64,000 nucleotides of DNA, from contig JANQEX010000077.1 of NCBI GenBank assembly GCA_028278105.1, positions 2,030-66,029 of the forward strand, in the 5' to 3' direction. The position numbers and the translations under genes were made by a program. The notes under the pieces were generated by a model, which was not told the DNA's origin, did not search any database, and was given only the letters and a program-made list of their open reading frames with translations. Of this stretch, positions 1 to 56,353 are shown in pieces; position 1 is the first letter of the stretch, and the number at the start of each line of letters is the position of its first letter. This DNA comes from Alphaproteobacteria bacterium (GTDB lineage Bacteria > Pseudomonadota > Alphaproteobacteria > UBA9219 > RGZA01).

Positions 1-31
1 TAGGGTGTTGGGTGTTGGGGTGTTCGGGTAT

Positions 32-155
32 TAGGTTTAATGGACAATGACCAACACGAACATTCCCGCGCCCAGCTTCGCCTGCGGCACCGCCGAGGTC
101 TTGGCGCACCCGTCGCGCCGAAGCTTTGCGGAGGCGGACAAGCAGGGGCCGGGGT
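32..155. repeat. Partial MITE-A left arm fused to a REP2 palindromic element
   Basis: TAGGTTTAATGGACAATGACCAACACGAACATTCCCGC matches the left arm of the MITE-A copies at 3130, 11290 and 50070. The following ~85 bp (GCCCAGCTTCGCCTGCGGCACCGCCGAGG...GCGGAGGCGGACAAGCAGGGGCCGGGG) is the palindromic REP2 unit also seen at 11328, 42044-42465, 47196 and 50108. Confidence 0.6.
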
Positions 156-203: not shown

Positions 204-438
204 CTAGGTTCAATGGACAATTAAACTCAAGTCATTGAAAAGGCTAAATGAACATTCCGGGCAAGGTTGCGCAGCAACCGCGACCCGGAATCCAGTTTGT
301 TCCTGAAAATAAATGGGATTCCCGCTTCCCTGCTTCGCCTTCGGCTTCGCAGGGCGCACTTGCAAAAAGGCCCGGCGCAGCTTTAGCGTAGCCGGGTCGC
401 GGGAATGTTCGTGTTGGTAATTGTCCATTGAACCTAAG
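204..438. mobile_element. MITE-A copy (20-bp TIR CTAGGTTCAATGGACAATTA / TAATTGTCCATTGAACCTAG) with a REP3 palindrome inserted at the central hairpin apex
   Basis: Both terminal inverted repeats are present. The core is colinear with the 165-bp copy at 3130-3294 in reverse orientation. About 76 bp (TTCCCTGCTTCGCCTTCGGCTTCGCAGGGCGCACTTGCAAAAAGGCCCGGCGCAGCTTTAGCGTAGCCGGGTCGCGG) is inserted between GGGATTCCCGC and GGGAATGTTCG; the same unit occurs at 18782, 26227 and 42168. Confidence 0.75.
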
Positions 439-3129: not shown

Positions 3130-3294
3130 CTAGGTTCAATGGACAATTACCAACACGAACATTCCCGCGAAAGCGGGAATCCCATTTATTTTCAAGAACA
3201 AACTGGATTCCGGGTCGCGGTTGCTGCGCAACCTTGCCCGGAATGTTCATTTAGTCTTTTCAATGACTTGAGTTTAATTGTCCATTGAACCTAG
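3130..3294. mobile_element. MITE-A, 165-bp reference copy without insert
   Basis: Perfect 20-bp TIRs CTAGGTTCAATGGACAATTA...TAATTGTCCATTGAACCTAG. Internal arms pair as a long hairpin (GAACATTCCCGCGAAAGCGGGAATCCC at the apex). The same unit recurs at 204, 11290, 20990, 50070 and 54396. Confidence 0.85.
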
Positions 3295-4268
3295 CGGGAA
3301 AAATGCTCGAACCATTTAATGATGCCAGCTTTATCCATGCTGTTCGAGAGCATCAGCATCAAGGCAAGCCGCGCCTGGCGGGCATTCAGCCATCCTGAGG
3401 GAATGAGGCCGCGTTCGATCAGGTCCGGCTCGCTGCCGGGGTAGGTGTAGCTGGCCTGGAAGGTCTCGCCCTGCCCCGCGCGGCTGCTGAAAAGCACCGG
3501 CATGCGGGCGGCCAAGGGTTCAAGTTGGGACAGAACCGCCATGGAAATATGACCGACACCGGTGCTGTTAAGGACAATGCCATCCATATCGTCGCGCGCG
3601 AAGGCCGCGATCAGGCCGGGCTCGAAATTCAGCCCGGTCTCGATGAGTGGAACCACCGGACGGCGCTTGCCGAGAGTCAGCCGTGGCGGAGTCAGGGCCG
3701 GTTGAAGAAACAGGCGCGCGCGATTTTCCGCAACCCATCCCAGCGGGCCGAGCGAAGCGAACGCGCTGGGCAGGAAGCTGTGCGCCTTCCGCACGAAAAG
3801 CGCGGAATGTATTTCATCATTCATCACCACAAGCACGCCCTTGCCGCGCGCGGCTGGCGCGGCGGCGGTCTTGCAGGCGGCAAGGATGTTGGCGGGGCCG
3901 TCCGCGCCCGGCAGGTCAGCCCGGCGCATCGCGCCGGTCAGCACGACGGGCTTTTCCGTTTCAAGAAGCAGCGCCAGGGCAAAAGCGGTTTCCTCCAGCG
4001 TGTCGGTGCCGTGGGTGATGACGATGCCGCCGGACTCCGCAAGGGCCTTGTTTATGGCCGCCACGAGCCGCGACAGATCATCCAGGGTCAGGCTGGCGCT
4101 TGGCTTGGCGAGGACCTCTCCCCCCGTTACATCCGCAACGCCGGCAAGGGAGGGAATGGATTCAAGCAGTCTCTCCACGCCAAGCGCCGGCATGCCGTCT
4201 TTTGCTCCGGCCTGTATGGCGATGGTGCCGCCGGTGGTCAGGATCGTGATTTTCGGCCTTGGGATCAT
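3291..4268 (-). CDS. L-asparaginase
   Basis: 325-aa ORF with the asparaginase N-terminal threonine motif (ILTTGGTIA) and HGTDTLEETAFAL. The stop codon TAG is supplied by the terminal CTAG of the MITE at 3291-3294. Confidence 0.8.
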   Translation of the reverse strand: MIPRPKITILTTGGTIAIQAGAKDGMPALGVERLLESIPSLAGVADVTGGEVLAKPSASLTLDDLSRLVAAINKALAESGGIVITHGTDTLEETAFALALLLETEKPVVLTGAMRRADLPGADGPANILAACKTAAAPAARGKGVLVVMNDEIHSALFVRKAHSFLPSAFASLGPLGWVAENRARLFLQPALTPPRLTLGKRRPVVPLIETGLNFEPGLIAAFARDDMDGIVLNSTGVGHISMAVLSQLEPLAARMPVLFSSRAGQGETFQASYTYPGSEPDLIERGLIPSGWLNARQARLALMLMLSNSMDKAGIIKWFEHFSR

Positions 4269-5360: not shown

Positions 5361-5449
5361 CAGGGTCTCAAGGGGCGCAAGGGTCATGAGGGTCTTTCTT
5401 ATTGACCCCATTGACCCTGTTGACCCTTCCGACCCTCTTGCAAGACCCC
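5361..5449. repeat. Family-4 palindromic heptamer array ((A/G)GGGTCA xN facing TGACCC(T) xN)
   Basis: CAGGGTCTCAAGGGGCGCAAGGGTCATGAGGGTC...ATTGACCCCATTGACCCTGTTGACCCTTCCGACCCTC. The same architecture is seen at 33189, 40325, 46172 and 49852. Confidence 0.7.
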
Positions 5450-10315: not shown

Positions 10316-11292
10316 CGGCGGAGCGGCGGATCAACCTTGCCCTGCAAGGCGGCGGCGCGCACGGCGCCTTTACCTGGGGCGTGTTGCACGCCTTGCTGGA
10401 AGACCGGCGGGTATCCTTTCGCGCCATAAGCGGCGCCTCCGCCGGCGCGCTGAACGCGGCGGTGATGGCCACGGGCCTCCTCGAAAGCCGGGAGAAGGCC
10501 ATGCGCCTGCTGGAGGATTTCTGGCGCGGGATCAGCGCCGCCAGTCCTTTCGGCGCTTTGTCCGCCTCCCGCCCGCCGCAGGCGTTTGGTTTTCAGGAAG
10601 GCCGGACGGCGAAAGGCGTGATGCAGGGGCTGGAGGCGCTTTCGCAGTTGTTTTCGCCCGGTCCGCATCCTGCGTCCATCCGCAATCCCCTGCGGCCCAT
10701 CCTGGCCGGATTTGTCGATTTCGGGGGTTTGCGAAGCCGCCCGGTTCCGGCCCTTCACGTCGCGGCCACCGATGTGCGCAAGGGATGCGCGCGCATCTTC
10801 GGCAATGCCGGACTTTCGGTGGAGGCGCTTCTGGCGTCCGCCTGCCTGCCGCAGTTGTTTCCGGCGGTGGAGATCGACGGCGCGCATTACTGGGACGGCG
10901 GCTTCACCGCCAACCCGCCGCTGCTTCCGCTGGCGCAGGACCGGAATACGCCCGACATCCTGATCGTGCGGATTAACGCCCTGGCCACGGACACGCTGCC
11001 GCGAACGGGACCTGCCATCGCCGGACGCCTGGGCGCCATTTGCTTCAACGCGCCGCTTCTGGCCGAATGGCGCGGCCTGTCGGGCCGGCCGGACCTTTTC
11101 TTTCACGCCATCGCCGATGACGAGCTGATGGCCATGCTCCCGCCGGAAAGCAAGCTTACGCCCGGCTGGGATTTTCTTTTGCGCCTTCATGACGCGGGCT
11201 ACCGGCGCGGGCGCGTGTGGCTGGAAGAAAATTATGACTTCCTTGGACAGAGAAGCACCGTGCAGCCGGAGACGCTGCTGGACATGGATTAG
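10312..11292 (+). CDS. Patatin-like phospholipase
   Basis: GGGAHGAF oxyanion motif, GASAGA serine hydrolase motif and the catalytic Asp region (DGG). The chosen start is TTG at 10312, overlapping the pgk stop (in-frame upstream codons lie inside pgk). The stop TAG is provided by the MITE terminus at 11290. Confidence 0.75.
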   Translation: MTAERRINLALQGGGAHGAFTWGVLHALLEDRRVSFRAISGASAGALNAAVMATGLLESREKAMRLLEDFWRGISAASPFGALSASRPPQAFGFQEGRTAKGVMQGLEALSQLFSPGPHPASIRNPLRPILAGFVDFGGLRSRPVPALHVAATDVRKGCARIFGNAGLSVEALLASACLPQLFPAVEIDGAHYWDGGFTANPPLLPLAQDRNTPDILIVRINALATDTLPRTGPAIAGRLGAICFNAPLLAEWRGLSGRPDLFFHAIADDELMAMLPPESKLTPGWDFLLRLHDAGYRRGRVWLEENYDFLGQRSTVQPETLLDMD

Positions 11293-11542
11293 GTTCAATG
11301 GACAATTACCAACACGAACATTCCCGCCCCCGCCTGTCCGCCTCCGCAAGCTCCGGCGCGACGGGTGCGCCAAGACCTCGGCGGTGCCGCAGGCGAAGCC
11401 GGGCGCGGGGGCAGGCTCCGGCGGGAATCCCATTTATTTTCAGGAACAAATTGGATTCCGGGTCGTGGTTGCTGCGCAACCTTGCCCGGAATGTTCATTT
11501 AGTCTTTTCAATGACTCGAGTTTAATTGTCCATTGAACCTAG
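11290..11542. mobile_element. MITE-A copy with a REP2 element nested at the hairpin apex
   Basis: TIR TAGGTTCAATGGACAATTACC...GTTTAATTGTCCATTGAACCTAG. A ~96-bp REP2 palindrome (CCCCGCCTGTCCGCCTCCGCAAGCTCCGGCGCGACGGG...GCAGGCGAAGCCGGGCGCGGGGGCAGGCTCCGGCG) is inserted between CATTCCCGC and GGGAATCCC, the same site as in the copy at 50070. Confidence 0.8.
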
Positions 11543-11554
11543 AGCATACAGGCG

Positions 11555-18354: not shown

Positions 18355-18363
18355 AAAAACAGC

Positions 18364-19006
18364 GTCATCCTGAAAGCCGCGAAGCGGCTATTCAGGATCT
18401 CCTTGCCAATGAAGAAATTTGTCGTTTACATCATGACGAACAAAAAATATGGAACGCTTTATATTGGCGTTACGTCAAACTTGTCGCGGCGCTCTTTTGA
18501 ACACAAGAACGGCACGCTTGGCGGCTTTTGCAAAAAATACAATCTGGACAAACTTGTATATTACGAGATCTATGATGAAGCGGTTCCTGCAATAACGAGG
18601 GAAAAGAAACTCAAGTTATGGAAACGTGCATGGAAAATTGAGCTAATTGAAAGCATGAACCCGCAATGGAATGATCTGGTAAATCATTTGATTAATTGAT
18701 CGCACACGCTATGTATCACAAGATCCTGGATAAACCTCGCCGCCATGCGGCTCGGTTTTCCAGGATGACGTTTTTTATTTCTTGCCCACCGGAACCTTCC
18801 CCCGCGACCCGGCTTCGCTAAAGTGACGCCGGGCCGTTTTTCAAGCTCGTCCTGTGGAGCCGAAGGCGGTGCGGAATTCTGACAAACAGCGTCATCCTGG
18901 AAAACCGAGCCGCATGGCGGCGAGGTTTATCCAGGATCTCGTTGCATGTATTGCTTCACCGGTAAAGATATCCTGAACAGCCGCTTCGCGGCTTTCAGGA
19001 TGACGT
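18364..19006. repeat. AT-rich cassette bounded by inverted family-6 hairpin repeats (GTCATCCTG...CAGGATCTC), carrying a GIY-YIG gene plus inner palindromes
   Basis: Outer pair: 18364-18401 and its reverse complement 18968-19006. Inner pair: 18722-18770 and its exact reverse complement 18891-18940, flanking a REP3 copy (18782-18860). GC drops sharply across 18403-18720. Confidence 0.6.
18409..18699 (+). CDS. GIY-YIG nuclease family protein (COG2827-like, ~96 aa)
   Basis: KKFVVYIMTNKKYGTLYIGVTSNLSRRSFEHKNG carries the GIY...YIG...R...E core. Codon usage is AT-rich, unlike the neighbouring genes. The start was chosen at ATG 18409 (the track ORF begins at TTG 18403). Confidence 0.7.
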   Translation: MKKFVVYIMTNKKYGTLYIGVTSNLSRRSFEHKNGTLGGFCKKYNLDKLVYYEIYDEAVPAITREKKLKLWKRAWKIELIESMNPQWNDLVNHLIN

Positions 19007-20292: not shown

Positions 20293-20368
20293 GGGCCTGT
20301 AGCTCAGCTGGGAGAGCGCATCGTTCGCAATGATGAGGTCGTCGGTTCGATCCCGATCAGGTCCACCA
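20293..20368 (+). tRNA. tRNA-Ala (anticodon CGC)
   Basis: GGGCCTGTAGCTCAGCTGGGAGAGCGCATCGTTCGCAATGATGAGGTCGTCGGTTCGATCCCGATCAGGTCCACCA folds as a cloverleaf with a G3:U70 alanine identity pair. The anticodon loop is TTCGCAA and CCA is encoded. Confidence 0.85.
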
Positions 20369-20493
20369 GCCTTCGCAAGCGAAGCGCTGCGAAGGCTGCC
20401 GCGCCGTAGCCTGAAAGGCGAAGGCGGGCATTTGCCCCTTTCGCTTGCTACGGCTCGGCAGGCCAGTTCAGTTGTTAGGCTTAGGCCATTCCC

Positions 20494-20730
20494 ATGAAGT
20501 ATGTCTACATATTGCAGAGTAAAGAAGGGGGACACTTCTATGTGGGAATGACTGATGATTTGCGCAAGAGGATTGCGCAGCATAATGCCGGGAAAGTTCC
20601 ACACACTACGAAATTCAAACCATGGACAATAAAAACATATATCGCTTTTTCCAGCGAGAAACAGGCGATCACGTTTGAAAAATATCTCAAGTCACCTTCT
20701 GGAAGAGCATTTGCAAAAAAGAGGCTTTAA
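20494..20730 (+). CDS. GIY-YIG nuclease family protein (~78 aa)
   Basis: MKYVYILQSKEGGHFYVGMTDDLRKRIAQHNAG carries the GIY-YIG core. The gene is AT-rich and sits immediately downstream of tRNA-Ala and a structured palindromic spacer. Confidence 0.7.
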   Translation: MKYVYILQSKEGGHFYVGMTDDLRKRIAQHNAGKVPHTTKFKPWTIKTYIAFSSEKQAITFEKYLKSPSGRAFAKKRL

Positions 20731-20989: not shown

Positions 20990-21150
20990 CTAGGTTCAAT
21001 GGACAATGACCAACACGAACATTCCCGCCCCCGCTTGCGCGGGGGCAGGCTCCAGCGGGAATCCCATTTATTTTCAGGAGCAAATGGGATTCCGGGTCGC
21101 GGTTGCCGCGCAACCTTGCCCGGAATGTTCATCGGGTCTTTTCGATTTTT
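20990..21150. mobile_element. MITE-A, right-truncated copy with a short REP2 remnant at the apex
   Basis: The left TIR CTAGGTTCAATGGACAATGACC is intact, and the apex carries CCCCGCTTGCGCGGGGGCAGGCTCCAGCG. The right arm ends at GGAATGTTCATCGGGTC without the terminal TIR. Confidence 0.7.
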
Positions 21151-22673: not shown

Positions 22674-23663
22674 GTGAAGGTCTCTTCGGGTGAAGCGGCT
22701 GTCAGGGAATTCATGCCTTCTCTTTTCCGGGATCTGAACGTGACGGATTTATACATCCGTCTCGACGCCAGCGATCCGGCGATTTACCAGCGCCAGAAAC
22801 GCGGGCGTTTCCGCTCGAACGCGCTCGTGCCCGACCGCTATGAGAAAGAGGTCCGCCAGATCGGCGAATTCATCCGCAACCAGGGCCTGAAGGAAGACAG
22901 CGTTTTGCATGTGAACGGCGTGCGCATGCGTCTGGCGCGCCAGAAAATGGCCGATGGCGAGGACTGGATCTGCCTGCGCGTCATCAAGACCATCATTCCC
23001 GAACTGGAGGATCTGGGCATTCCGCCCGCCTATGTGGAGGCGCTGCGCGAGCTTGGCCAGCGCGACGGACTCATCATGCTCACCGGCGCCACCGGCCACG
23101 GCAAGACCACCACGGCCGTGTCGCTCCTTTCCGATTGCCTCCGGCGTCACGGCGGCATCGCCGTCACCATTGAAGATCCGGTTGAATACGTGCTGAAGGG
23201 TCACCATGGCGAGCGGGGCTTCTGCTTCCAGTCGGAAGTGAACGACGACGAGGAATGGGCCGGGGCGATCAAGCGCAGCCTGCGCTGGGCGCCGCATTAC
23301 ATTTTCGTCGGGGAAATCCGCACGCCGAAGGCGGCGGAGCAGGTATTGCGCGCGGCCACCACCGGCCATCTGGTGCTGACCACCGTTCATGCCGGCTCGC
23401 CGGAAGAGGCGCTGATGGGCCTGATGCATCTGGCCGAGCAGACCATGGGCGGCGCATCGCAAATGATCCTTGCCGCCGGCTTGACGGCGGTTCTGCATCA
23501 AACCATGACCGAGTCCGGCCCGCATGTGCGCCTGGTGACGACCGAATCCGGCAATATGGGCGATCCGGTCCGGGCGCTGGTGCGCGAGAACAAGGTCGGG
23601 ATGCTCGGCACCTATATTGATAAAATGACGGCCCGGCTCTCCGCGGCGGGACGGGAAAGGTAG
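22674..23663 (+). CDS. PilT/PilU-family hexameric secretion ATPase, divergent (paralogue 1)
   Basis: Walker A GATGHGKTTT, IEDPVEY, Walker B/Asp box YIFVGEIRTP and His box TGHLVLTTVHAG, colinear with PilT over the whole length. The N-terminal 13 residues are uncertain; an alternative start is ATG 22713. Confidence 0.65.
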   Translation: MKVSSGEAAVREFMPSLFRDLNVTDLYIRLDASDPAIYQRQKRGRFRSNALVPDRYEKEVRQIGEFIRNQGLKEDSVLHVNGVRMRLARQKMADGEDWICLRVIKTIIPELEDLGIPPAYVEALRELGQRDGLIMLTGATGHGKTTTAVSLLSDCLRRHGGIAVTIEDPVEYVLKGHHGERGFCFQSEVNDDEEWAGAIKRSLRWAPHYIFVGEIRTPKAAEQVLRAATTGHLVLTTVHAGSPEEALMGLMHLAEQTMGGASQMILAAGLTAVLHQTMTESGPHVRLVTTESGNMGDPVRALVRENKVGMLGTYIDKMTARLSAAGRER

Positions 23664-23669
23664 GGTTCC

Positions 23670-24656
23670 ATGCACAAGCTCAGCAAATTCGACTTCATGG
23701 ACCTTTACGTGCGGCTCGACGGCGCGTCCACGCCGCGCTATCGCGCGCCGCGCCTGGACAAGCACAATGTCTGGACGCAGCTTCTGCCCGAACTTTATCA
23801 TGCCGACGCCGACCATCTTATCATGCATCTGCGTCAGGACGCGCACCGGCCCGACGCCGCGTTCGACTATGACGGCATGCATTTCCGCATCTCGCAGCAG
23901 AAAATGGCCAGCGGCGAGGAATGGGTGTGCCTGCGCAAGGTGAACCCGGTCGTGCCCCGCCTGGTCGATCTGGGCTATGTGCCGCATATCGCCAACTACC
24001 TGCTGAACCTTGGGCGGCGCGACGGGCTGGTGCTGCTCTCCGGCGCCACCGGCCACGGCAAGACGACGACATGCTTTTCGCTGCTGCAGGAATATCTGGA
24101 GCGCTATGGCGGCGTCGGCATGACCGTGGAAGATCCCGTGGAATACGAATTGGAGGGCGAACGCGGCGCGCATGGCTATTGTTACCAGATTCAGGTGTCG
24201 GACGAAGAGGACTGGGCCCCGCCCCTGAAGCGCTGCCTGCGCTGGACGCCGCGTTACCTGCTGGTGGGTGAAATCCGCTCGCCTGAGGCGGCCGAGCAGA
24301 TCCTGCGCGCGGCCACCACCGGCCATCTGGTGCTGACCACCATTCATGCCGGCTCGATTGAGGAAAGCCTGCTCGGCCTTTTGCATCTGGCCTATCGCGC
24401 CGTCGGCGAGAGCGCGCGGATCATGCTGGCGCAGGCGCTGACGGCGGGCATTCACCAGACCCTCAATCCCACCGGGCCGTTCATCCGCTACATCTTTACC
24501 GAAGAGAACAACAACGGCGACCCGGTGCGCGCCCTGATCCGCGAGGACCGGGTGGGCATGATCAATACCTATATCGACCGGCAGATCGCCCGCATGCAGC
24601 TTTTGCAGAATCCCACGCTTCCGCCGCCGCCCACCACCGCGCCGCGGAAGAAGTGA
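23670..24656 (+). CDS. PilT/PilU-family hexameric secretion ATPase, divergent (paralogue 2)
   Basis: Tandem paralogue of the upstream gene with the same motif set (GATGHGKTTT, VEDPVEY, LLVGEIRSP, TGHLVLTTIHAG). Its N-terminal domain is distinct and it has a proline-rich C-terminal tail. Confidence 0.65.
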   Translation: MHKLSKFDFMDLYVRLDGASTPRYRAPRLDKHNVWTQLLPELYHADADHLIMHLRQDAHRPDAAFDYDGMHFRISQQKMASGEEWVCLRKVNPVVPRLVDLGYVPHIANYLLNLGRRDGLVLLSGATGHGKTTTCFSLLQEYLERYGGVGMTVEDPVEYELEGERGAHGYCYQIQVSDEEDWAPPLKRCLRWTPRYLLVGEIRSPEAAEQILRAATTGHLVLTTIHAGSIEESLLGLLHLAYRAVGESARIMLAQALTAGIHQTLNPTGPFIRYIFTEENNNGDPVRALIREDRVGMINTYIDRQIARMQLLQNPTLPPPPTTAPRKK

Positions 24657-25055
24657 CTTTCTGGCGTCATCCTGGAAAGCGCGCGCCGCGCGTTTATCCG
24701 GGATCTCCTGAGCAGGAGAAAGATCCTGAATAAAGCTCGCGCCGCTCGCTTTTTCAGGATGACGCCTCATGGGGCACTGATTTCTGACTTCTGATTACTG
24801 AATGTCATCCTGGAAACCGCCGCAGGCGGTTATCCATGATCTCTTTCTTCCATGGGCACAAGATCCCGGATAAACGCGCGGCGCGCAGTTTCCGGGATGA
24901 CGCCTCATGGGGTACTGATTTCTGACCTCTGATTACTGAATGTCATCCTGGAAACCGCCACGGGCGGTTATCCAGGATCTCTTTCCCCCATGGGCACAAG
25001 ATCCCGGATAAACGCGCGGCGCGCAGTTTCCGGGATGACGCCCTTTTGGCAAGAT
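24657..25055. repeat. Cluster of family-6 hairpin repeats including a ~140-bp tandem duplication
   Basis: Units GTCATCCTGGAAA..TTATCC(A/G)GGATCTC occur at 24666, 24722(rc), 24806, 24862(rc), 24943 and 25003(rc). The composite 24757-24896 is repeated about 95% identically at 24896-25036. Confidence 0.8.
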
Positions 25056-26226: not shown

Positions 26227-26545
26227 AAACGTCCTGCCCGCGACCCGTCTTCGCTAAAGCTATGCCGGGCCGTTTTGCAAGCGCGCCCTGCGAAGCCGAA
26301 GGCGAAGCAGGGAGGCGGGCATCCACAGCTTGCGGAGGCGGAAAAGCGGGCGCCGGGGTAAACTCCAGCCGGGGTCCGGCATGAAGCCGGAGGCTTCATG
26401 CAACCGCCTCCGGCGGTTGCTGGATTCCGGCTTTCGCCGGAATGAGAAGTTGTCTGTCTGGTTTGATCCGTTCCCAATCAAGTTTGGACCTAAACAAACG
26501 GGATTCCGGGTCGCGCGAGCTTCGCTCGCTTGCCCGGAATGTTCA
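26227..26545. repeat. REP3 palindrome plus a degenerate MITE-A fragment
   Basis: 26227-26330 CGCGACCCGTCTTCGCTAAAGCTATGCCGGGCCGTTTTGCAAGCGCGCCCTGCGAAGCCGAAGGCGAAGCAGGGAGGCGGG is a REP3 unit. 26490-26545 AAACGGGATTCCGGGTCGCG...GCCCGGAATGTTCAT is a MITE-A core arm. Confidence 0.6.
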
Positions 26546-26552
26546 TTCAAGC

Positions 26553-28959: not shown

Positions 28960-29209
28960 TCGAAAGCCGTTTCAACCGGTTTGAGAAATGGGTAGTGGGT
29001 CAGTTTAAAAAAATCACCCCCGCGACGGCGGGGGTCCCATTTGATTTCCAAAATAAAATGGGATGCCCGCCAGAGCCTGTCCCCGCGAAGGCGGGGGCGG
29101 GCATGATTTTCGGAGCAAGTTGACCCGCTACCGAGAAACCGCCATGGGTTTTTCCGCTTCCGCTTTGGGTTTTCCTGTGCTTGGCTATGGGCGAATGTTG
29201 CGGAGAAGC

Positions 29210-33167: not shown

Positions 33168-33188
33168 TCGCCATGAGGATCGGGGCGC

Positions 33189-33258
33189 GAGGGTCATAAG
33201 GGTCAACAGGGCCGGCACGGACCCTCACGACCCTTGTGACCCTTTCGACCCTTTTCAC
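33189..33258. repeat. Family-4 GGGTCA/TGACCC palindromic array
   Basis: GAGGGTCATAAGGGTCAACAGGGCCGGCACGGACCCTCACGACCCTTGTGACCCTTTCGACCC. Confidence 0.7.
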
Positions 33259-36107: not shown

Positions 36108-36425
36108 CACCATATTTCCTCTCCCCCAAGGGGAGAGGTTGCAACAACTTCCGTTTAGCGAAGCTAAACGGTTATACCAACGAACTTATGAACGGACACA
36201 CGCCAATAAGGTAATGCGTCATGCCCGCGGAGGCGGGCATCCACGCTGAAAAACCATCAAAACAAAAGTTTTAAAGCGTGGACCCCCGCCGTTGCGGGGG
36301 TGACGGTTGTGCTTTTGGTGTGAGTCATTTCATAAGACCGCTGGTATTAGTTGTTGCTGGTGAGGGGTTCTCTTTCCCAACCGCATAACCCCACCCCTTA
36401 ATCCCCTCCCTCAAGGGGAGGGGAA
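36108..36425. repeat. Intergenic region with two family-5 CCCCTCCC/GGGAGGGG hairpins and additional palindromes
   Basis: 36108-36139 CTCTCCCCCAAGGGGAGAGG. 36391-36425 CCCCACCCCTTAATCCCCTCCCTCAAGGGGAGGGG. Also GTCATGCCCGCGGAGGCGGGCATCC and GTGGACCCCCGCCGTTGCGGGGGTGACGG. Confidence 0.65.
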
Positions 36426-40324: not shown

Positions 40325-40397
40325 CAGGGTCACGAGGGGCGGAAGGGTCAACAGGGTCGAAAAAAGACCCCCATGACCCTTCTGACCCCTATGCCCC
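40325..40397. repeat. Family-4 GGGTCA/TGACCC palindromic array
   Basis: CAGGGTCACGAGGGGCGGAAGGGTCAACAGGGTCGAAAAAAGACCCCCATGACCCTTCTGACCCC. Confidence 0.7.
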
Positions 40398-41335: not shown

Positions 41336-42043
41336 TCAGAAACGGCCCTTTCTGGGGGGATCGAACAGGAAGGTGGAGGACGGCACCTCCACGTTCGCCT
41401 GCGCGTTGGAAAGGGCGACGCGCGTGGTCAGCCCCTGCGCGTCGGTCACGCGCCAGTTGCGCAGGACCAGCGGGTTGTCCTCGAACTCCAGCGTCATCAT
41501 GCCGGCGTCGGGATTGCCGGCTTGCGTTACGTCGATCTCCAGCATGGAAGGATAATAATGCACGGCGGTCACGGTGATATCGCCCGAAAACGTGAAGGGG
41601 TCGCGCAGGATGATGTCGGCCAGCGACTGTCCCAAGGGCACGCTGGAAGACGTCTTCGCCCGGCTGTCCCAGGCGTGGATGAAAAGCCCGTCCGCCACCA
41701 GAAGATCACGATGGGGCGGCGCGTATTCCAGGCGCATCCTGCCCGGACGTTTCAACACCAGCTTGCCCCTGGTGATCCTGCCGTCCGGCAGGGTTTGCGT
41801 GAAGTCGGCTCTCAGGCTGCGCAGTTCGTTCAAATAGGTTTCCACCCGTGCGATGGTGGCGCGGTCCCTGGCGGCATGGGCCGCTTTCGATTCATCCTTG
41901 CCCCCGGTTTTGGGCGCGATCAGCGGCGTCACCGCCGGCCGCGGGCCGGAAGGCGCGGGCTCTTCGGCGCCCAGCGGCGGGGCAAGAACCAGAAAGGCAA
42001 GAAAAGCGAAGAGGGGGTAGTGTCTCGGTTTGAAAAGCATCAT
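41336..42043 (-). CDS. LolA-like outer-membrane lipoprotein carrier protein
   Basis: Signal peptide MMLFKPRHYPLFAFLAFLVLAPPLGA and a LolA-like fold signature (ADFTQT..., RMRLEY). The maximal track ORF extends a further 155 codons into the REP2/REP3 cluster and was trimmed to ATG 42043. Confidence 0.65.
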   Translation of the reverse strand: MMLFKPRHYPLFAFLAFLVLAPPLGAEEPAPSGPRPAVTPLIAPKTGGKDESKAAHAARDRATIARVETYLNELRSLRADFTQTLPDGRITRGKLVLKRPGRMRLEYAPPHRDLLVADGLFIHAWDSRAKTSSSVPLGQSLADIILRDPFTFSGDITVTAVHYYPSMLEIDVTQAGNPDAGMMTLEFEDNPLVLRNWRVTDAQGLTTRVALSNAQANVEVPSSTFLFDPPRKGRF

Positions 42044-42465
42044 GCCCGCCCCCGCCTGCCCGCCTCCGCAAAAGCTTCGGCGCGACACATGCGCCAGGAC
42101 ATCGGCGGTGCCGCAGGTGAAGCCGGGCGCGGGGGCAGGTTCCGGCGGGGGTCTCAAAATCCAGGCGTCCCCGCGACCCGTCTTCGCTAAAGCTACGCCG
42201 GGCCATTTTGCAAGCTCGCCCTGCGAAGCCGAAGGCGTAGCAGGGAAGCGGGGACCCAGTTTGTTTATAATAAAACCAGGCCCCCGCTTGTCCGCCTCCG
42301 CAGGCTTCGGCGCGACGGACACGCCAAGACCTCGGCGTAGCCGCAGGCGAAGCCGGGCGCGGGGGCGCCTGAGTGTGTGGTGACTGCCGGGTCCGGCCTG
42401 TCCGCCTCCGCAAGCTTCGGTGCGACGGGCACGCCAAGACCTCGGCGAAGCCGGGCGCGGGGGTG
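42044..42465. repeat. Cluster of three REP2 copies and one REP3 copy
   Basis: REP2 at 42044-42145, 42280-42366 and 42390-42463. REP3 at 42168-42255. All are GC-rich imperfect palindromes sharing GCGAAGCCGGGCGCGGGGG arms. Confidence 0.75.
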
Positions 42466-42567
42466 ATTTCCAAGGTGAGGCATTGCCAAGAAGAGGGGCG
42501 GAAAGTTTCATGCCCCCATGTTAGACTATGATTTATGGCAAGAATGAAGCGTCTTTTTTTGGCCCGA

Positions 42568-46041: not shown

Positions 46042-46270
46042 GATTCAGAGATCAGAGATCAGAGGTCAGAGGTCAGAAGTTAGAGGTCAATAGTCGATTG
46101 CAGAAAAGCTTATACAACGCAGGAAGGCCGGACTCCCCTCCCCTTGAGGGAGGGGTTGGGGGTGGGGTTTAAGCAGGGTCTCAAGGGTCATAAGGGTCAT
46201 GAGGGTCTTTTATGTTGACCCCTTCTGACCCTATTGACCCTTACGACCCTTTCACGACCCTCTCGACCCT
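46041..46270. repeat. Composite repeat region: heptamer tandem (TCAGAGA/TCAGAGG x7), a family-5 hairpin and a family-4 array
   Basis: 46041-46095 TCAGAGATCAGAGATCAGAGGTCAGAGGTCAGAAGTTAGAGGTCAATAGTC. 46128-46169 CCCCTCCCCTTGAGGGAGGGGTTGGGGGTGGGGTT. 46172-46270 is a GGGTCA/TGACCC array whose last CTAG supplies the stop of the next gene. Confidence 0.75.
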
Positions 46271-47195: not shown

Positions 47196-47382
47196 CGGGC
47201 GCGCCCGCGCCCGGCTTCGCCTGCGGCACCGCCGAGGTTTTGGCTATTCGTCACGCCGAAGCTTGCGGAGGCGGAAAAGCCGGGGCCAGCATGACATGAA
47301 TATATTTCCCCTCCCTCAAGGGGAGGGGAGTCAAGGCGGGCAGAGGGAGGAGGAGGTGATTTTCATTCCCCTCCCTCCGGCC
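47196..47382. repeat. REP2 copy followed by two family-5 hairpins
   Basis: 47196-47290 GCGCCCGCGCCCGGCTTCGCCTGCGGCACCGCCGAGG...GCGGAGGCGGAAAAGCCGGGGCC. 47304-47382 TTCCCCTCCCTCAAGGGGAGGGGAG...TTCATTCCCCTCCCTCC. Confidence 0.7.
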
Positions 47383-47681
47383 TAGCTTTGTCAAAGCTCC
47401 AGCAGGGGCGGGAGTGATTTGTTCAAACGGTTCCACAACCCCCGCGAAATACGGGTTGACCCCTGTTCATGAATCCCCCAGTATTTTCGCGGAAACGGCC
47501 TCTGCCGTTTCCGGGGTGTAGTAACCTCACACAAAGCGGTGTTTAGCGTTGCCGATACGAACGTTGCCTCCGGTCCGTCGGGCTGGGAGGCAGTGGCGTA
47601 TGTCCAAGCCTCACGGCCAAAGGCCTCTGCAATCGTCTTTGTGCGATTTACTAACTCCCAGTCACCAGGGGGAGTTTGAGC

Positions 47682-47978
47682 GTGGGCGCTTGCCGGGCCA
47701 TCGCCGTTATGGGCGTCATCGCAGGAATCGCGACTCTAACTGTTGCCGCTGCCGCAAGCGCACCGCCGGTAACGGGCGGGCTGAAGGACGAGACTCTTGT
47801 CCCTGAAAAAGCAATTACGCAGAACGAACGCGCGAAGCCGCCGCCGCCCTGTCCCAAGGTGATCGGCACGGAGCCGGTGGACATGTCGCGCTGCCGGCAT
47901 CGCGTCGTGACCGGTGCGGCAAGGCCCAAGCCCTATCCCGTCATCCCCGCCCTTTTCCCTACGCCGGGTAAGCCATGA
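47682..47978 (+). CDS. Small hypothetical secreted protein, translationally coupled to the downstream repeat protein
   Basis: RBS GGGGGAG seven nt upstream of GTG 47682. Signal-peptide-like N-terminus (AIAVMGVIAGIATLTVAAAASA). The stop overlaps the downstream ATG (ATGA). Confidence 0.45.
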   Translation: MGACRAIAVMGVIAGIATLTVAAAASAPPVTGGLKDETLVPEKAITQNERAKPPPPCPKVIGTEPVDMSRCRHRVVTGAARPKPYPVIPALFPTPGKP

Positions 47979-49711
47979 CGGGCCGGTTTGCCTTCCTTGC
48001 CGTCTTTTACGCCGCGCTGCTGGCAGGCTCCCCGCTTTATGCCGGCTGCGTGAACCCGCCGGGCGTGAACGGGGAGGCGATTTATAACGCGGATCACAAC
48101 GTCATGCAGTTCTGTGACGGCGCAAGCTGGATCAGCATGGCGGCTTCCGGTTCGGCCACCGAGGTGGACCCCAAGGTGGGCACGCTGGAAAACGGCAAAT
48201 GGTGTTCATCCAATGGTGTCATCATCACCTGCACCGAGGATGCGCCCGTCAGCGGCGCGGGCGGCTCCAGCGGGCAGGTGCAGTATAACACCGGCACCGG
48301 GCTTGGTGGTGCCGTGGCCGTCACCTATGCCACCTCCGGTGATCTGCTGATGCTTATATCGCAGGCGGCCACCGACATTCCCCTGGTGATAAAGGGCGCG
48401 GCGGACCAGACGGGGAATCTTCTGGAAATACGGGACTCCGATGACACGCCGCTGGTCACGGTCTCTTTTGCGGGCGTAATCGGCGGCTCCGGCGCATCGC
48501 TCACCAGCCTGAACGCCGATAGCCTCGCCAACGGCACAATCCCCGACGCGCGGTTTCCGGCCACGCTTCCCGCATCTTCGGGCGCGAACCTCACCGCCTT
48601 GAACGCCGGCAACATCTCCAGCGGCACGGTGGCCACGGCGCGGCTGGGTTCGGGAACGGCCAACAGTTCCACTTATCTGCGCGGGGACGGCGCCTGGACA
48701 AGCGTGAGCGCGGGCACGACCCTGCCCGATTGCGCGGACGGGCAAATCGTCGTGCGCCTGGACGGCGGATGGGTGTGCAAGAATCAGTTCACATGGGTCT
48801 GCTCCGTCACATGGACGCAGCGCACCGGCGCGGGCAGCCGGATCTGGTTCGACATCGCCAGCAGCAGCGACGGCGCCAAACTGGCGGCGGTGGTCCGCGG
48901 CGGCTATATCTACACCAGCAGCGACGGCGGCGCGACCTGGACGGCGCGCACCAGTGCGGGCAGCTGGGAGTGGATCGCCATCGCCAGCAGCAGCGACGGC
49001 GTCAAGCTGGCGGCGGTGAACGACTCCGACGACTATATTTACACCAGCAGCGACTCCGGCGCGACCTGGACGGCGCGCACCAGTGCGGGCAGCCGGAGGT
49101 GGAGCGGCATCGCCAGCAGCAGCGACGGCGTCAAGCTGGCGGCGGGAGTCTACGGCGGCTATATCTACACCAGCGATGACTTCGGAATGACCTGGACGGA
49201 ACAGACTGCCGCGGGCAGCCGGGAGTGGCTCTACATCGCCAGCAGCAGCGACGGCAGCAAGCTGGCGGCGGCGACAGCCAGAAGCTTCGGCTATATCTAC
49301 ACCAGTAGCGACAGCGGTGCGACCTGGACGGCGCGCACCGGCGCAGGCAGCCGGAGGTGGAAGGCCATCGCCAGCAGCAGCGACGGCGTCAAGCTGGCGG
49401 CGGGGGTCTACAACGGCTATATCTACACCAGCAGCGACAGCGGCGCGACCTGGACGGAGCAGGCCGGCGCGGGCAGCCGGGTCTGGTACCGCATCGCCAG
49501 CAGCAGCGACGGCAGCAAGCTGGCGGCGACCGGCGTCGGCGGTTATATCTACACCAGCAGCGACAGCGGCGCGACCTGGACGGAGCAGTCCGGCGCGGGC
49601 AGCCGGACCTGGTACCGCATCGCCAGCAGCAGCGACGGCAGCAAGCTGGCGGCGGCTGTCTACAACGGCTATATTTACACCGGCGCCACAACTTGCGATT
49701 TTTTTGAGTGA
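47975..49711 (+). CDS. Secreted mosaic protein: phage-tail-fibre-like repeats plus eight BNR/Asp-box-like beta-propeller blades
   Basis: Signal peptide MTGRFAFLAVFYAALLAGSPLYAG. The central region (SLNADSLANGTIPDARFPATLPASSGANLTALNAGNISSGTVATARLGSGTANSSTYLRGDGAWTSV) resembles phage tail fibre repeats. It is followed by eight ~40-aa repeats IASSSDG.KLAA....GYIYTSSDSGATWT..T.AGSR.W containing S-x-D-x-G-x-T-W boxes. Confidence 0.65.
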   Translation: MTGRFAFLAVFYAALLAGSPLYAGCVNPPGVNGEAIYNADHNVMQFCDGASWISMAASGSATEVDPKVGTLENGKWCSSNGVIITCTEDAPVSGAGGSSGQVQYNTGTGLGGAVAVTYATSGDLLMLISQAATDIPLVIKGAADQTGNLLEIRDSDDTPLVTVSFAGVIGGSGASLTSLNADSLANGTIPDARFPATLPASSGANLTALNAGNISSGTVATARLGSGTANSSTYLRGDGAWTSVSAGTTLPDCADGQIVVRLDGGWVCKNQFTWVCSVTWTQRTGAGSRIWFDIASSSDGAKLAAVVRGGYIYTSSDGGATWTARTSAGSWEWIAIASSSDGVKLAAVNDSDDYIYTSSDSGATWTARTSAGSRRWSGIASSSDGVKLAAGVYGGYIYTSDDFGMTWTEQTAAGSREWLYIASSSDGSKLAAATARSFGYIYTSSDSGATWTARTGAGSRRWKAIASSSDGVKLAAGVYNGYIYTSSDSGATWTEQAGAGSRVWYRIASSSDGSKLAATGVGGYIYTSSDSGATWTEQSGAGSRTWYRIASSSDGSKLAAAVYNGYIYTGATTCDFFE

Positions 49712-49739
49712 CAATCCTTCAAGGGACGCGGCTTTTTTT

Positions 49740-50069: not shown

Positions 50070-50323
50070 CTAGGTTCGATGGACAATTACCAAGACGAAC
50101 ATTCCCGCCCCCGCCTGTCCGCCTCCGCAAGCTTCGGCGCGACGGGTACGCCAAAACCTCGGCGTAGCCGCAGGCGAAGCCGGGCGCGGGGGCAGGCTCC
50201 AGCGGGAATCCCATTTGTTTTCAAGAACAAATTGGATTCCGGGTCGCGGTTGCTGCGCAACCTTGCCCGGAATGTTCATCTCGTCTTTTCAATGACTTGA
50301 GTTTAATTGTCCATTGAACCTAG
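50070..50323. mobile_element. MITE-A copy with a REP2 element nested at the apex
   Basis: TIRs CTAGGTTCGATGGACAATTACC...GTTTAATTGTCCATTGAACCTAG. The REP2 insert (about 50108-50205) sits between CATTCCCGC and GGGAATCCC, exactly as in the copy at 11290. Confidence 0.8.
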
Positions 50324-50403
50324 GGGCTGGACTCATTATACCAACAAGCTTACGAACCGACACAGGCTCCGGCGGGAACAGGAATGCGCATATTCCAAAA
50401 TGC

Positions 50404-54395: not shown

Positions 54396-54518
54396 CTAGG
54401 GCCAATAGACAATTACCAACATGAACATTCCCGCGAAAGCGGGAATCCCATTTATCTTCAAAAACAAACGGGATTCCGCAGGCGCGGCTGCTTCACAACC
54501 TTACCCGGAATGTTCATT
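54396..54518. mobile_element. MITE-A, degenerate right-truncated copy
   Basis: CTAGGGCCAATAGACAATTACCAACATGAACATTCCCGCGAAAGCGGGAATCCCATTTATCTTC...GGAATGTTCATTAATGG lacks the right TIR. Confidence 0.65.
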
Positions 54519-55920
54519 AATGGAAGTCATTGCCTCCGCCGCGATAGGGACCCAGGCGCCGCTCATGCAGTCTTTGCTTGATGGCCAGCGCCTCGGATGC
54601 CGAAGGGTAAAGCGATGAATCCTCCGGCACGCTTTTGTCATGCACGGCATAGGCTTTGCTTAAACTCCGGTTCAGGCCTTGCGCCTCGTCCACAATCGCC
54701 CAGGCCCGCGCATAAGTTGTGCAGCTAAGCGCCAGAAGAAGCACGGCCGCGGCCCATCCCGCTCGCGCGGCGAATCCGCCTTTCAGCCGGGTCAAAAACG
54801 GCAAGGCCCTTTGAAGATCACAACAAGCCGCAAGCAGTCCGAAATACATGATATTCGCAACAATGGTGGTGGGCGACACGCCGGCATGGGCAACGCCATA
54901 TCCGGGGAGCGCGCCGCGTCCATAGCCGACGGCGCCGGCGACCAGAACCGCATAGGACACGGCCAGCACAAAAAAACCATTGCGTGTTTCCGCCAGTCTT
55001 TCGCGTTTTCGCAGAACATGAATGAAATACGCTGCGGCAAGGGCGCAGACGACGCCGCCGCAAACGGCGTTGATCGCGTATTCGCTGGCATGGCCGAACA
55101 TGCCGATGTGATACATCCAGACAAGGTTGCCAAGCGGCTTGCCCAGAAATACGAGCACGTAAAGCGCAAGATCAATGACTCCCGGATGTTCCTGCGCCGT
55201 AAACGGCAGTCCCGGAAAATACAGCGCCGCCGCCGCCGTGGCATTGGCGATCCAGAAGGCTCTTTCCATCCATGTCGTTTTTCGCAGAAACAGCACCAGC
55301 AGCAACACCGGCAAGAAGGCCAGGATGCCGCTGGCAAAGCTGTAAGTGGCGAACCATAGAAGAATGGCCGCCAAAATCCGCGACGGCCAGCGCCGGGCGG
55401 CTTGCGCCAGCAATACATAGGCGCAGAGCACATAGGCGCAGCACATCACGAGTTCGATCATGAAGCTCCACCACATGTTCACATGCTGCGCGGGCGAAAA
55501 GCCAAGAATGGCCGCCGCGCCCAGTATCGCCGTCCGTTCCCAGCCTCCAACATTGGCCGGGAGGACGCGATGGAGGAAAAAAAGAACGGCCGCCACCTGC
55601 CCGGTCTGGAACAGGTTGAGCAGAACGAATTCCCAGCGCAGGTTCCATCCCGACAGCAGGGCGGGACCCAGCAGCAAAAGCCGTGGCGCGGCGATGCGAT
55701 GCTCGTTATGCGGCTGGAAGATGCGGGAAAGCGTCAGCGCGCCGTCATGGGCGGAAGCGACCAGCGAGGAAGTGTCCCCCGCATGATCCCAGAAGGGATG
55801 GACCAGCGCGCCCGACTGGGAAAAGGCCACATAGTAAAGCGCGGGCAGAAGGACGAGCAGCCACGCTGTCCAAGCAGGCAGTGATATTTTGTCAGCGAAG
55901 AAAGGCTTTGTCATCGGCAT
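54517..55920 (-). CDS. Polytopic membrane protein (possible GT-C glycosyltransferase / polymerase)
   Basis: 467-aa ORF with at least 10 hydrophobic helices, located in the glycan cluster. No soluble-domain motifs. Confidence 0.45.
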   Translation of the reverse strand: MPMTKPFFADKISLPAWTAWLLVLLPALYYVAFSQSGALVHPFWDHAGDTSSLVASAHDGALTLSRIFQPHNEHRIAAPRLLLLGPALLSGWNLRWEFVLLNLFQTGQVAAVLFFLHRVLPANVGGWERTAILGAAAILGFSPAQHVNMWWSFMIELVMCCAYVLCAYVLLAQAARRWPSRILAAILLWFATYSFASGILAFLPVLLLVLFLRKTTWMERAFWIANATAAAALYFPGLPFTAQEHPGVIDLALYVLVFLGKPLGNLVWMYHIGMFGHASEYAINAVCGGVVCALAAAYFIHVLRKRERLAETRNGFFVLAVSYAVLVAGAVGYGRGALPGYGVAHAGVSPTTIVANIMYFGLLAACCDLQRALPFLTRLKGGFAARAGWAAAVLLLALSCTTYARAWAIVDEAQGLNRSLSKAYAVHDKSVPEDSSLYPSASEALAIKQRLHERRLGPYRGGGNDFH

Positions 55921-56215: not shown

Positions 56216-56295
56216 AACGGCAGGCCGGAGCCTGCCGTCTCATTTTGTGAACAACGTCTTGTTAACGGTAAGACGCCGTTTTCTAATCAGCTGTT
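56216..56295 (-). ncRNA. Predicted tracrRNA of the type II-C system
   Basis: The minus strand at 56272-56292 is a perfect 21-nt complement of the crRNA repeat segment GACGCCGUUUUCUAAUCAGCU, extendable with a bulge. Downstream on the minus strand lie the hairpin AACAAGACGTTGTT and the terminator GACGGCAGGCTCCGGCCTGCCGT-TTTTTGTTT. The upstream promoter is TTGACG-N18-TAAAAT (56300-56329). Confidence 0.7.
56217..56238 (-). terminator. Rho-independent terminator hairpin (tracrRNA 3' end)
   Basis: ACGGCAGGC-CGGA-GCCTGCCGT stem-loop followed on the minus strand by UUUUUGUUU. Also U-rich on the plus side. Confidence 0.7.
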
Positions 56296-56299
56296 GCGA

Positions 56300-56329: not shown

Positions 56330-56353
56330 GGCAATTTAATAGGGGGACAAGCA

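Follow-up and report, generated by a model that had tools for sequence, protein, structure and literature searches.

How does extra DNA come to lie at one fixed position, the apex of a hairpin, in copies of a small transposable element? The question is raised by a 64-kb stretch of an alphaproteobacterial genome (contig JANQEX010000077.1; hereafter the window), which supplies all of the in-genome evidence considered here. The window holds seven copies of a 166-bp MITE (a miniature transposable element with inverted repeats), which we call MITE-A, together with two repeat families, REP2 and REP3 (REP, repetitive extragenic palindrome). A sequence-only reading had described REP2 and REP3 as foreign palindromes inserted into MITE-A hairpin tips, as expected of a REP-associated tyrosine transposase (RAYT) or of TnpA of the IS200/IS605 insertion sequences (ISs). 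That reading was right that the pattern is hairpin-specific and probably right that it is linked to single-stranded DNA (ssDNA), but it named the wrong partner family and overlooked a known repeat class. We favor, at a probability of roughly 0.5, an explanation in which loop-resident modules are gained and lost at hairpins of the CGTC class and the resulting MITE-A states then spread by TA-targeted transposition.

Apex states of MITE-A

MITE-A contains no open reading frame (ORF) and is bounded by perfect 20-bp terminal inverted repeats (TIRs). As DNA, the whole element folds with z = -9 relative to shuffles; a 15-mer from the TIR has 10 matches in the window (0.09 expected), and GAACATTCCCGC has 7 (0.72 expected). 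TA dinucleotides flank both sides of 4/4 complete copies and the left side of 3/3 truncated copies. TA flanks combined with TIRs are the signature of IS630/Tc1-mariner-type MITEs, and because MITE-A has both, its own movement is predicted to be of the IS630/mariner (double-strand DDE) type. No parent IS with MITE-A ends and a DDE transposase was found by Pfam in the window, among plasmids, or by pattern scans of genome and metagenome contigs. The copies, named below by their first position, and the parts of the reference copy are as follows.

3130..3295, plus strand: reference MITE-A, apex empty, CTAGGTTCAATGGACAATTA...TAATTGTCCATTGAACCTAG, flanked by TA at each end
3161..3180, plus strand: hairpin 1 of the reference, ATTCCCGC-GAAA-GCGGGAAT, upstream tag GAAC
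3204..3249, minus strand: hairpin 2 of the reference, GAAC-ATTCCGGG-(22-nt loop with nested hairpin)-CCCGGAAT-CCAG
204..438, minus strand: MITE-A with REP3 in hairpin 1
326..398, minus strand: REP3 module of that copy, 73 nt, GACCCGGCTACGC...GAAGCAGGGAA, between ATTCCCGC and GCGGGAAT
11289..11543, plus strand: MITE-A::REP2a composite, 93-nt apex content at 11328..11420
50070..50324, plus strand: second MITE-A::REP2a composite, apex content at 50109-50201
20990..21140 (end approximate), plus strand: right-truncated copy of the MITE-A::REP2a lineage, inner hairpin empty at 21027-21046
31..149, plus strand: truncated MITE-A left arm (31-69) with opposite-orientation REP2 (65-149), joined at CATTCCCGC
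54396..54520, plus strand: old degenerate MITE-A with empty GAAA apex, ~90% identity

In all seven copies, length changes are confined to the interval between ATTCCCGC and GCGGGAAT; the rest of the backbone is indel-free, and insertions at variable positions were not seen, which agrees with the fixed insertion point of the sequence-only reading. To the left and to the right, the backbones stay 97 to 100% identical as far as the 8-bp stem, and no conversion tracts are visible outside it. As that reading had also held for the insert-free copy, the interval can contain only GAAA (4 nt); this is the case in copies 3130 and 54396. It contains 93 nt in copies 11289 and 50070, 26 nt in copy 20990, and 73 nt (REP3) in copy 204. 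The REP3 insert reads GA...AA, and because GAAA equals its first two plus its last two bases, the proposed replacement of the loop is correct in location but ambiguous in its junction.

The 93-nt content had been taken for a REP2 insert at 11328-11423 and 50108-50205. These coordinates are essentially right, but the insert is a composite of an inner 8-bp hairpin, GCCCCCGC(71 nt)GCGGGGGC, and an 8-nt bulge, AGGCTCCR. In copy 11289 the inner hairpin spans 11326-11412, shares its first two bases with the outer stem, and is accompanied by the bulge AGGCTCCG. Copy 20990 retains the bulge (AGGCTCCA) and an empty inner hairpin, GCCCCCGC-TTGC-GCGGGGGC. Copies 11289 and 50070 are 94% identical over 253 nt. 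Because all three copies have in common both the bulge and a backbone substitution (CAAAT), they are best counted, as judged from these characters, as one apex event followed by copying of MITE-A. Insertion was thus repeated in the sense that several distinct states exist, but these three copies do not add to the number of events.

A second arrangement of REP2 occurs at the edge of the window. Positions 31-69 are 95% identical to the MITE-A left arm and run straight into an opposite-orientation REP2 at ...CATTCCCGC; the REP2 at 69-155, earlier listed as free-standing, therefore counts as one more case of apex nesting, in a MITE-A that is truncated. Translated searches of NCBI records with the composite returned three spurious ORFs (P0001 to P0003) that represent further loci. 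P0002 and P0003 read through a complete MITE-A on the minus strand, with REP2 immediately flanked by ...CCCGC and GCGGGAATG... and turned the other way round from copy 11289, and they have the GCAAAGCTT variant in common with copy 31. In P0001, REP2 lies between GACGAACATTCCCGC and GCGGGAATGCTCGTC.

Four apex states are distinguished: empty, REP3, REP2a (inverted, in the inner hairpin), and REP2b (direct). The REP2 core of copy 31 is 95% identical to that at 11326, and the two REP2 states may be related by inversion and deletion rather than being separate entries. This gives a firm minimum of two gains (REP3 and REP2), with three more likely. The empty apex is likely the ancestral state of MITE-A, since both the most diverged copy (54396, ~90%) and a young copy (3130) are empty with identical GAAA, and the REP3 copy is 98 to 100% identical to 3130. 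Loss probably also occurred: copy 20990 groups with 50070 (TTCATC and CTCCAG in common; two characters against one conflicting), and its inner loop keeps only G+CAA, pointing to precise removal of the module inside a filled lineage. The notion that MITE-A derives from a longer ancestral element thus fares poorly under parsimony, which favors gain into an empty hairpin, although at least one core appears to have been lost too.

The apex of MITE-A hairpin 2 has been swapped as well. At 26493-26547, compared with 3197-3251, the inner stem GGTTGC-TGC-GCAACC is changed to GCGAGC-TTC-GCTCGC, with the flanking bulges TCGC and TTG kept.

A family of 8-bp hairpins with empty and filled loops

An intergenic scan of the window for CCCGC...GCGGG placed 3/3 complete REP3 copies (73, 73, and 73 nt) and four REP2 copies (71, 71, 71, and 73 nt) exactly between the two pentamers. 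Beyond the pentamer, exactly three more bases are complementary, for 8 paired positions and a family-wide form of NNNCCCGC...GCGGGNNN. Counted over ten distinct hairpins, pairing holds in 29/30 cells for the three outer pairs, where 12 changes are two-sided; for the three positions further out, 23/30 cells are unpaired. The stem covariation score of 0.305 (0.167 in shuffles) was reached by 0/500 shuffles and exceeds all slid controls. CCCGC-N4-GCGGG itself has 8 matches against 0.86 expected. The host site is an 8-bp hairpin composed of three covarying pairs and CCCGC; REP2 and REP3 lie in CCCGC...GCGGG hairpins at every locus of the window, so the MITE-A hairpin is not the special target it had been taken for. 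The members outside MITE-A are listed here.

26230..26325, plus strand: CGTC-tagged hairpin with REP3 loop, CGTC CTGCCCGC (73 nt) GCGGGCAT CCA
42167..42255, plus strand: REP3 in a GTCCCCGC...GCGGGGAC hairpin with CCA tail
42048..42136, minus strand: REP2 in a GCCCCCGC hairpin, outer bulge architecture as in the MITE-A composite
42280..42366, minus strand: REP2 in a GCCCCCGC...GCGGGGGC hairpin
42392..42478, minus strand: REP2 with internal deletion, sharing its left stem and tag, AATC-ACCCCCGC, with the empty hairpin at 29019
47201..47292, plus strand: REP2 with decayed right stem
18798..18882, plus strand: REP3 with decayed right end, between an inverted pair of CGTC hairpins
36217..36305: empty tail-to-tail doublet, CGTC ATGCCCGC GGAG GCGGGCAT CCA (plus) and CGTC ACCCCCGC AACG GCGGGGGT CCA (minus)
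29013..29104: empty doublet, ACCCCCGC-GACG-GCGGGGGT, then ATGCCCGC-(CAGAGCCT + GTCCCCGC-GAAG-GCGGGGGC)-GCGGGCAT

Five stem variants were seen both empty and filled in the window.

Stem ATT: empty with GAAA; filled with REP3 and with REP2
Stem ATG: empty with GGAG at 36224; filled with REP3 at 26237, with equal CGTC tag and CCA tail
Stem ACC: empty at 29019 and 36285; filled with REP2 at 42392, with equal AATC flank
Stem GCC: empty at 21030; filled in four REP2 copies
Stem GTC: empty at 29082; filled at 42170

The hairpin-in-hairpin form, in which an outer stem surrounds an 8-nt bulge (CRGAGCCT) and an inner stem, also occurs in both conditions: it is empty at 29066-29101, where the second hairpin of the doublet has the layout of the REP2a composite, and filled in the MITE-A composites and at 42040-42156.

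REP2 and REP3 resemble one another. In like orientation, they have in common the start CCCGC-G(A)CCCGGCTTCGC, the motif GCCGAAG, a GGCG-rich end, and equal length, with 60 to 65% identity (z = 3 to 4 against dinucleotide shuffles); within each family, identity is 80 to 95%. Alignment thus points to two subfamilies of a single non-coding module. As for the description "foreign palindromes", the inserts are indeed extra DNA in the apex, but they are related to each other, and REP2 is a poor palindrome (DNA fold z of only -0.9 to -1.5 against shuffles). REP3 folds moderately (z = -1.9 to -3.5) and has inverted ends of 11 to 12 nt and two sub-hairpins. The left flank is always CCCGCG and the right flank, GCGGG, is equally fixed; there is no target site duplication (TSD), and hairpins lie at the very ends. 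GTAG is not conserved, being present only as a polymorphism inside some REP2 copies. REP3 keeps a single orientation with respect to the tag (4/4), and REP2 is found in both orientations within MITE-A hairpin 1. In Rfam scans, the window yielded only two tRNAs at the gathering threshold, and the REP cluster gave no meaningful match at E <= 1, ruling out a known structured RNA as the identity of the repeats.

Could the empty hairpins simply be remnants? If MITE-A and the other hairpins descended from long, module-carrying forms, the empty tetraloops would be products of replication slipping past the inner fold. The identity of GAAA with the GA and AA of REP3 would fit such a history, as would copy 20990, where the best reading of the inner hairpin is that a filled lineage lost its module, and the deletion between short direct repeats inside the REP2 at 42392. 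Under deletion only, however, MITE-A would need two independent, identical, and precise losses (3130 and 54396) plus replacement of REP3 by REP2 in two lineages, against three gains. Cores that are 90 to 95% identical recur across five covarying stems that are also seen empty, requiring the stems to diverge by double changes while the cores stay constant, and canonical CGTC REPs and NTS repeats (see below) elsewhere basically have 4- to 5-nt loops. We consider deletion alone very improbable.

A second possibility is that the modules do not move at all. Whole tagged hairpins might be copied with their loop contents, as in Rickettsia palindromic elements (RPEs), and the MITE-A versions acquired by homologous recombination with other members of the doublet family. 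Hairpin, tag, and tail do act as units at unrelated loci (26230 versus 36217), the fixed orientation of REP3 would be expected, and the flanks of some "free" copies resemble MITE-A flanks (42156-42280 versus the MITE-A spacer). Recombination is hard to reconcile, however, with MITE-A backbones that match right up to the stem and lack outside conversion tracts, or with both REP2 orientations in one and the same MITE-A hairpin, and it leaves both states of each stem variant unexplained. This makes immobile modules a rather unlikely explanation.

A further hairpin family of the form CCCCTCCC...GGGGAGGGG (e.g., TCCCCTCCCTCAAGGGGAGGGGA) is found at 36120-36140, 36400-36425, 47300-47385, and 49950-49985, frequently adjoining REP2, REP3, or MITE-A copies.

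Hairpin class, Ssn-like nuclease gene, and gene content of the window

The hairpins belong to a known class. Hairpin 1 is an exact match to the Neisseria repeat dRS3 (ATTCCC-N8-GGGAAT) at 3161-3180 and 54427-54446 (2 matches against 0.03 expected). The related NTS repeat, also of Neisseria, has a 28-nt consensus, CGTCATTCCCGCGMAVGCGGGAATCYRG, with an oriented CGTC tag (PMC11893778). Hairpin 1 is identical to this consensus across the central 21 nt (ATTCCCGCGAAAGCGGGAATC), with tag GAAC and tail CCA; the full consensus has no match in the window at up to 3 mismatches. Within these 21 nt lies the C that follows the palindrome, which of all bases matters most for binding by SsnA (PMC11893778). 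Similarly, the format described for CGTC-tagged REPs comprises a CGTC or TGTC tag, an 8- to 9-bp stem starting with A-T, a 4- to 5-nt loop, and a CCA-like tail (PMC3733652). Hairpins 36217 (plus) and 36279 (minus) match it in full and 26230 in all but its loop, the 73-nt REP3; the MITE-A hairpins have the stem, loop, and tail of this format but not its tag.

Scans with the published search sequence for Ssn-related motifs (SRMs), HGTCWYN(0-2)YYVSBRHN(0-5)WNVSBRGN(0-2)RNCYNB (PMC11893778), gave 0 exact matches in the window. Allowing one mismatch recovers, among others, 36217 (plus), 36278 (minus), and 26420 (minus), with a total not above that of shuffles; mismatch-tolerant matches are non-specific in this GC-rich sequence and were excluded from counts. 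A tag-plus-stem scan allowing one stem mismatch was likewise near chance (78 matches versus 53 in shuffles), and only perfect-stem matches starting with A-T or A-C were retained. Because no exact SRM match exists and the mismatch search is non-specific, we classify the hairpins, by their motifs, as CGTC-class and NTS-like, not as SRMs in the strict sense. The MITE-A core is a tail-to-tail pair of SRM-like hairpins (hairpins 1 and 2); the doublets at 29013-29104 and 36217-36305 have a similar layout but no TIRs. Window hairpins resemble NTS, dRS3, and SRM repeats in the ATTCCC-N8-GGGAAT of hairpin 1 and, elsewhere, in the CGTC tag, 8-bp stem, and C or CCA tail. They differ in that many loops hold a 71- to 73-nt module or nested hairpins of 16 to 28 nt, in the GAAC of MITE-A, and in ATCCTGRA stems beside the nuclease gene described below; the published account of NTS and SRM repeats does not deal with loop-resident modules or carriage by MITEs (PMC11893778).

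Loops of unusual length have been noted in Bradyrhizobium CGTC-1 repeats (PMC3733652). The long "loops" that the tag-plus-stem scan picked out in Bradyrhizobium, Rhodopseudomonas, and other loci proved to be dimers joined head to head and tagged at either side rather than loops with a filling, and they were not counted. In the window, 24665-25040 holds an array of CGTC/TGTC-ATCCYGGA hairpins whose orientation alternates, partly as 138-bp tandem units (24751-25026); its loops of 18 to 22 nt are mutually different and each self-complementary.

A gene for a small GIY-YIG nuclease lies between two inverted hairpins of the class.

18363..18401, plus strand: upstream hairpin, CGTC ATCCTGAA (16 nt) TTCAGGAT
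18409..18699, plus strand: Ssn-like single-domain GIY-YIG gene, 96 aa, low GC at third codon positions
18720..18770, minus strand (inverted): downstream hairpin, CGTC ATCCTGGA (28 nt) TCCAGGAT

The stems of this ATCCTGRA class enclose 16- to 28-nt loops. The 96-aa protein matches PF01541 only (Pfam, E = 6e-13), has more than 7000 relatives of 91 to 138 aa, and in NCBIfam shows just a weak match to group I intron endonucleases; a search for a solved structure found none. Inverted hairpins also flank homologues in five other genomes (L087, L033, L088, L089, and L090). The two hairpins beside the L090 homologue differ in loop length (4 nt and 25 nt), and one of the five homologues, that of Caldithrix abyssi, is flanked by the stems ATTCCCGC and ATTCCGGC, as in MITE-A. 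The arrangement parallels NTS-ssnA-NTS, the published gene layout of the Ssn family (PMC11893778). The ORF at 18409-18699 is, as judged by homology, a probable member of that family and hence known rather than new, and we predict that Ssn, not RAYT, is the cognate enzyme family of the hairpin class. Ssn proteins are GIY-YIG ssDNA nucleases that bind the hairpin solely in its single-stranded form and cleave a few nucleotides upstream of it; Neisseria meningitidis SsnA does not depend on the identity of the loop and tolerates both its removal and its extension (PMC11893778). The modules described here sit in the part that SsnA does without. A second, weaker GIY-YIG-like ORF at 20494-20730 encodes 78 aa and has 34% identity to the first (E = 2e-5). 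It is found shortly 3' of tRNA-Ala (20293-20368), after a GC-rich palindromic stretch at 20368-20461.

The enzyme family originally proposed finds less support. REP2 and REP3 could be REP- or REPIN-type elements mobilized in trans by a Y1 HUH transposase (RAYT or IS200/IS605 TnpA), with precise excision as ssDNA and integration at a fixed, short, hairpin-exposed target (CCCGCG^). The constant left boundary, CCCGC|G(A)CCCGGCTTCGC in all copies, and constant core length (71 to 73 nt) suit such an enzyme, the ends and sub-hairpins of REP3 resemble a small REPIN, and copy 20990 looks like a seamless excision, a process observed for REPINs in Pseudomonas fluorescens (PMC3116915). Pfam scans of ~50 window ORFs, however, found no Y1_Tnp, RAYT, or IS200-type gene and no transposase at all within the 64 kb, and the GTAG tag is not conserved. 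In ssDNA, IS200/IS605 elements integrate on the 3' side of a tetranucleotide and do not use hairpin tips. Although their targets are tetranucleotides, CCCGCG sites outside hairpins are unoccupied in the window, and in the REP2a composites the loop bases are absent instead of flanking the insert. Further, the hairpin class was reported without RAYT association (PMC3733652) and has now been tied to Ssn (PMC11893778). We therefore regard a Y1 HUH agent as unlikely.

The window as a whole is GC-rich (~62%) chromosomal DNA with housekeeping genes (ftsK, htpG, hisS, ileS, pgk, yidC, cydAB, and argG). A type II-C CRISPR-Cas locus of lower GC content (56294-61803) encodes cas9 (1068 aa), cas1, and cas2 and has an array of at least 15 repeats (36 nt each, separated by spacers of 30 nt), followed by tRNA-Arg (61818-61894). 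A gene for a BNR/Asp-box repeat protein (47975-49711) contains 126/129-bp tandem repeats (48733-49782). The 673-aa ORF at 22749-24770 has no Pfam match, an unusual codon-position composition (GC of 0.81 at first positions), and an internal 300-nt repeat (23043-23342 and 24000-24299). Finally, a dispersed intergenic repeat of GGGTC-containing 11-nt units (CAGGGTCTCAAGGGGCGCAAGGGTCATGAGGGTC) occurs at 5361-5409, 33182-33214, 40325-40373, and 46174-46222.

Proposed gain and loss of loop modules

The explanation we favor, gain and loss of modules at CGTC-class hairpins followed by spread of the MITE-A states, builds on direct observations (the position and relatedness of the modules, the hairpin class, the empty and filled stem variants, and the lack of a transposase in the window), from which we infer the enzymology. 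The 71- to 73-nt module would have its home in the loop of an 8-bp hairpin bound by small GIY-YIG ssDNA nucleases, and MITE-A would be a TA-targeting, IS630/mariner-like MITE built round a tail-to-tail pair of such hairpins. Hairpin 1 would have switched several times between empty (GAAA) and filled (REP3, inner-hairpin REP2, or opposite-orientation REP2), each state then being multiplied by ordinary MITE-A transposition. Modules may enter and leave while the hairpin is extruded on ssDNA, with the CCCGC and GCGGG halves as joining points. The likeliest route would be copy-choice (short-patch conversion or template switching), in which replication or repair copies from a second hairpin of the class; Ssn-type ssDNA cleavage beside the hairpin may set this off. 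We propose that insertions are retained only in the loop because it is the sole part of the hairpin that Ssn recognition does without.

Several points weigh against this explanation. MITE-A hairpins carry GAAC, not the CGTC tag important for SsnA cleavage; the Ssn cut falls upstream of the hairpin and not within its loop, and loading of the loop by Ssn is conjecture. Eight base pairs offer very little homology for conversion. The single orientation of REP3 is unexpected under purely symmetric stem-guided copying, and the constant core length and exact boundaries suit dedicated transposition equally well. Dedicated transposition, by RAYT or another enzyme, is a serious rival, fitting core length, left boundary, and REP3 orientation alike. 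The lack of exact SRM matches counts here too, as does the modest likeness of REP2 and REP3, for which reverse-complement alignment scores about equally, as expected because both are imperfect palindromes.

The numbers of events are also small, because one 64-kb window is readable and pattern scans yielded no further copies. An exact-pattern scan with the MITE-A left arm had zero matches in genome and metagenome contig collections; a REP2 24-mer had just two chance matches in metagenome contigs, both inside coding sequence; and MITE-A had no match among plasmids. FtsK-anchored loci from 80 related genomes (best 68 to 77% amino acid identity; unclassified Alphaproteobacteria and Rhodospirillales metagenome-assembled genomes [MAGs]) were without MITE-A, REP2, or REP3, and exact-protein look-ups of window genes led only to short Logan contigs (SRR20820740), broken at MITE-A. 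By its FtsK relatives, the window falls among unclassified Alphaproteobacteria and Rhodospirillales-like MAGs.

Loop filling is nevertheless not unique to this genome, since a Rhodospirillales MAG (locus L071, JAJECC010000128.1, 9804-18449) provides what appears from its sequence to be an independent parallel. It holds CGTC-class hairpin doublets, CGTC-ATGGCCGG...CCGGCCAT-CCAC / CGTC-ATGCCCGG..., of which one has an 8-nt loop and four have an extra 42-nt apex module, the copies being otherwise alignable.

Comparison with described systems places the pattern as a variant of known bacterial repeat mosaics rather than a new kind of element. Like REPINs and their RAYTs (PMC3116915; Nunvar 2010), the modules are short, non-autonomous, hairpin-forming doublets of ~70 to 110 nt, lineage-specific and clustered in intergenic mosaics, whose excision leaves part of the element behind; the window differs in having neither RAYT nor GTAG tag, and residence inside another hairpin's loop is not reported for REPINs. 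RPEs, which are CGTC-tagged (PMC3733652), can be compared by description only: like the filled hairpin here (tag, stem, 73 nt, stem, and tail, 96 nt in all), they are alphaproteobacterial, ~100 nt long, and palindromic, and they end in CGTC. The MITE-A composites are copied further, as nested MITEs are, and MITE-A has the TA flanks, 20-bp TIRs, and 166-bp length of IS630/Tc1-mariner MITEs, but the guests have no TSD and are found at a single, fixed internal position, not at arbitrary TA sites. RPEs, for their part, often lie inside genes.

Precise insertion into palindromic repeats also has precedents. In Thermomicrobium roseum, REPs lie inside CCGSSCC(n3,4)GGSSCGG palindromes, hundreds of which are also present without a guest (PMC3733652); that guest, mentioned in passing, is a GTAG REP, whereas here a CGTC-type hairpin plays host to an untagged, imperfect palindrome of 73 nt. 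The passages of PMC3116915 and PMC4390886 that treat such targets describe ISs in REP loops (IS1397/ISKpn1) or REP centers (IS110 family) and SDR5 precisely inside HIP1 in Nostoc. As described there, these cases have in common with the window precise, repeated insertion at the center of a palindromic repeat, but the ISs are autonomous, with their own transposase, and SDR5 is 21 to 27 nt long in a host that is an 8-bp palindrome, not a hairpin loop.

It is conceivable, though doubtful, that REP2 and REP3 represent an undescribed tiny mobile element that integrates into and leaves the SRM hairpin loop and whose movement depends on an Ssn ssDNA nuclease working on hairpins extruded in ssDNA. If so, it would be a parasite of the NTS/SRM-Ssn system able to hitchhike on MITEs; alphaproteobacterial RPE-like elements and SRMs with long loops would be accounted for, and Ssn would have a part in repeat dynamics.

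Ssn-bound hairpins were characterized only in 2025, and this case bears on their spread and on the variation of their loops. It offers a natural example of an SRM-type hairpin loop as a cargo site, with five stem variants, both orientations, and a MITE-copied composite. It also cautions that "REP" families defined by eye can be the host and guest parts of one system. If gain and loss are enzyme-driven, the modules would give direct access to the way in which CGTC-type REPs, RPE-like elements, and intergenic mosaics come about; if not, they would be a clean example of loop tolerance shaping bacterial repeat mosaics.

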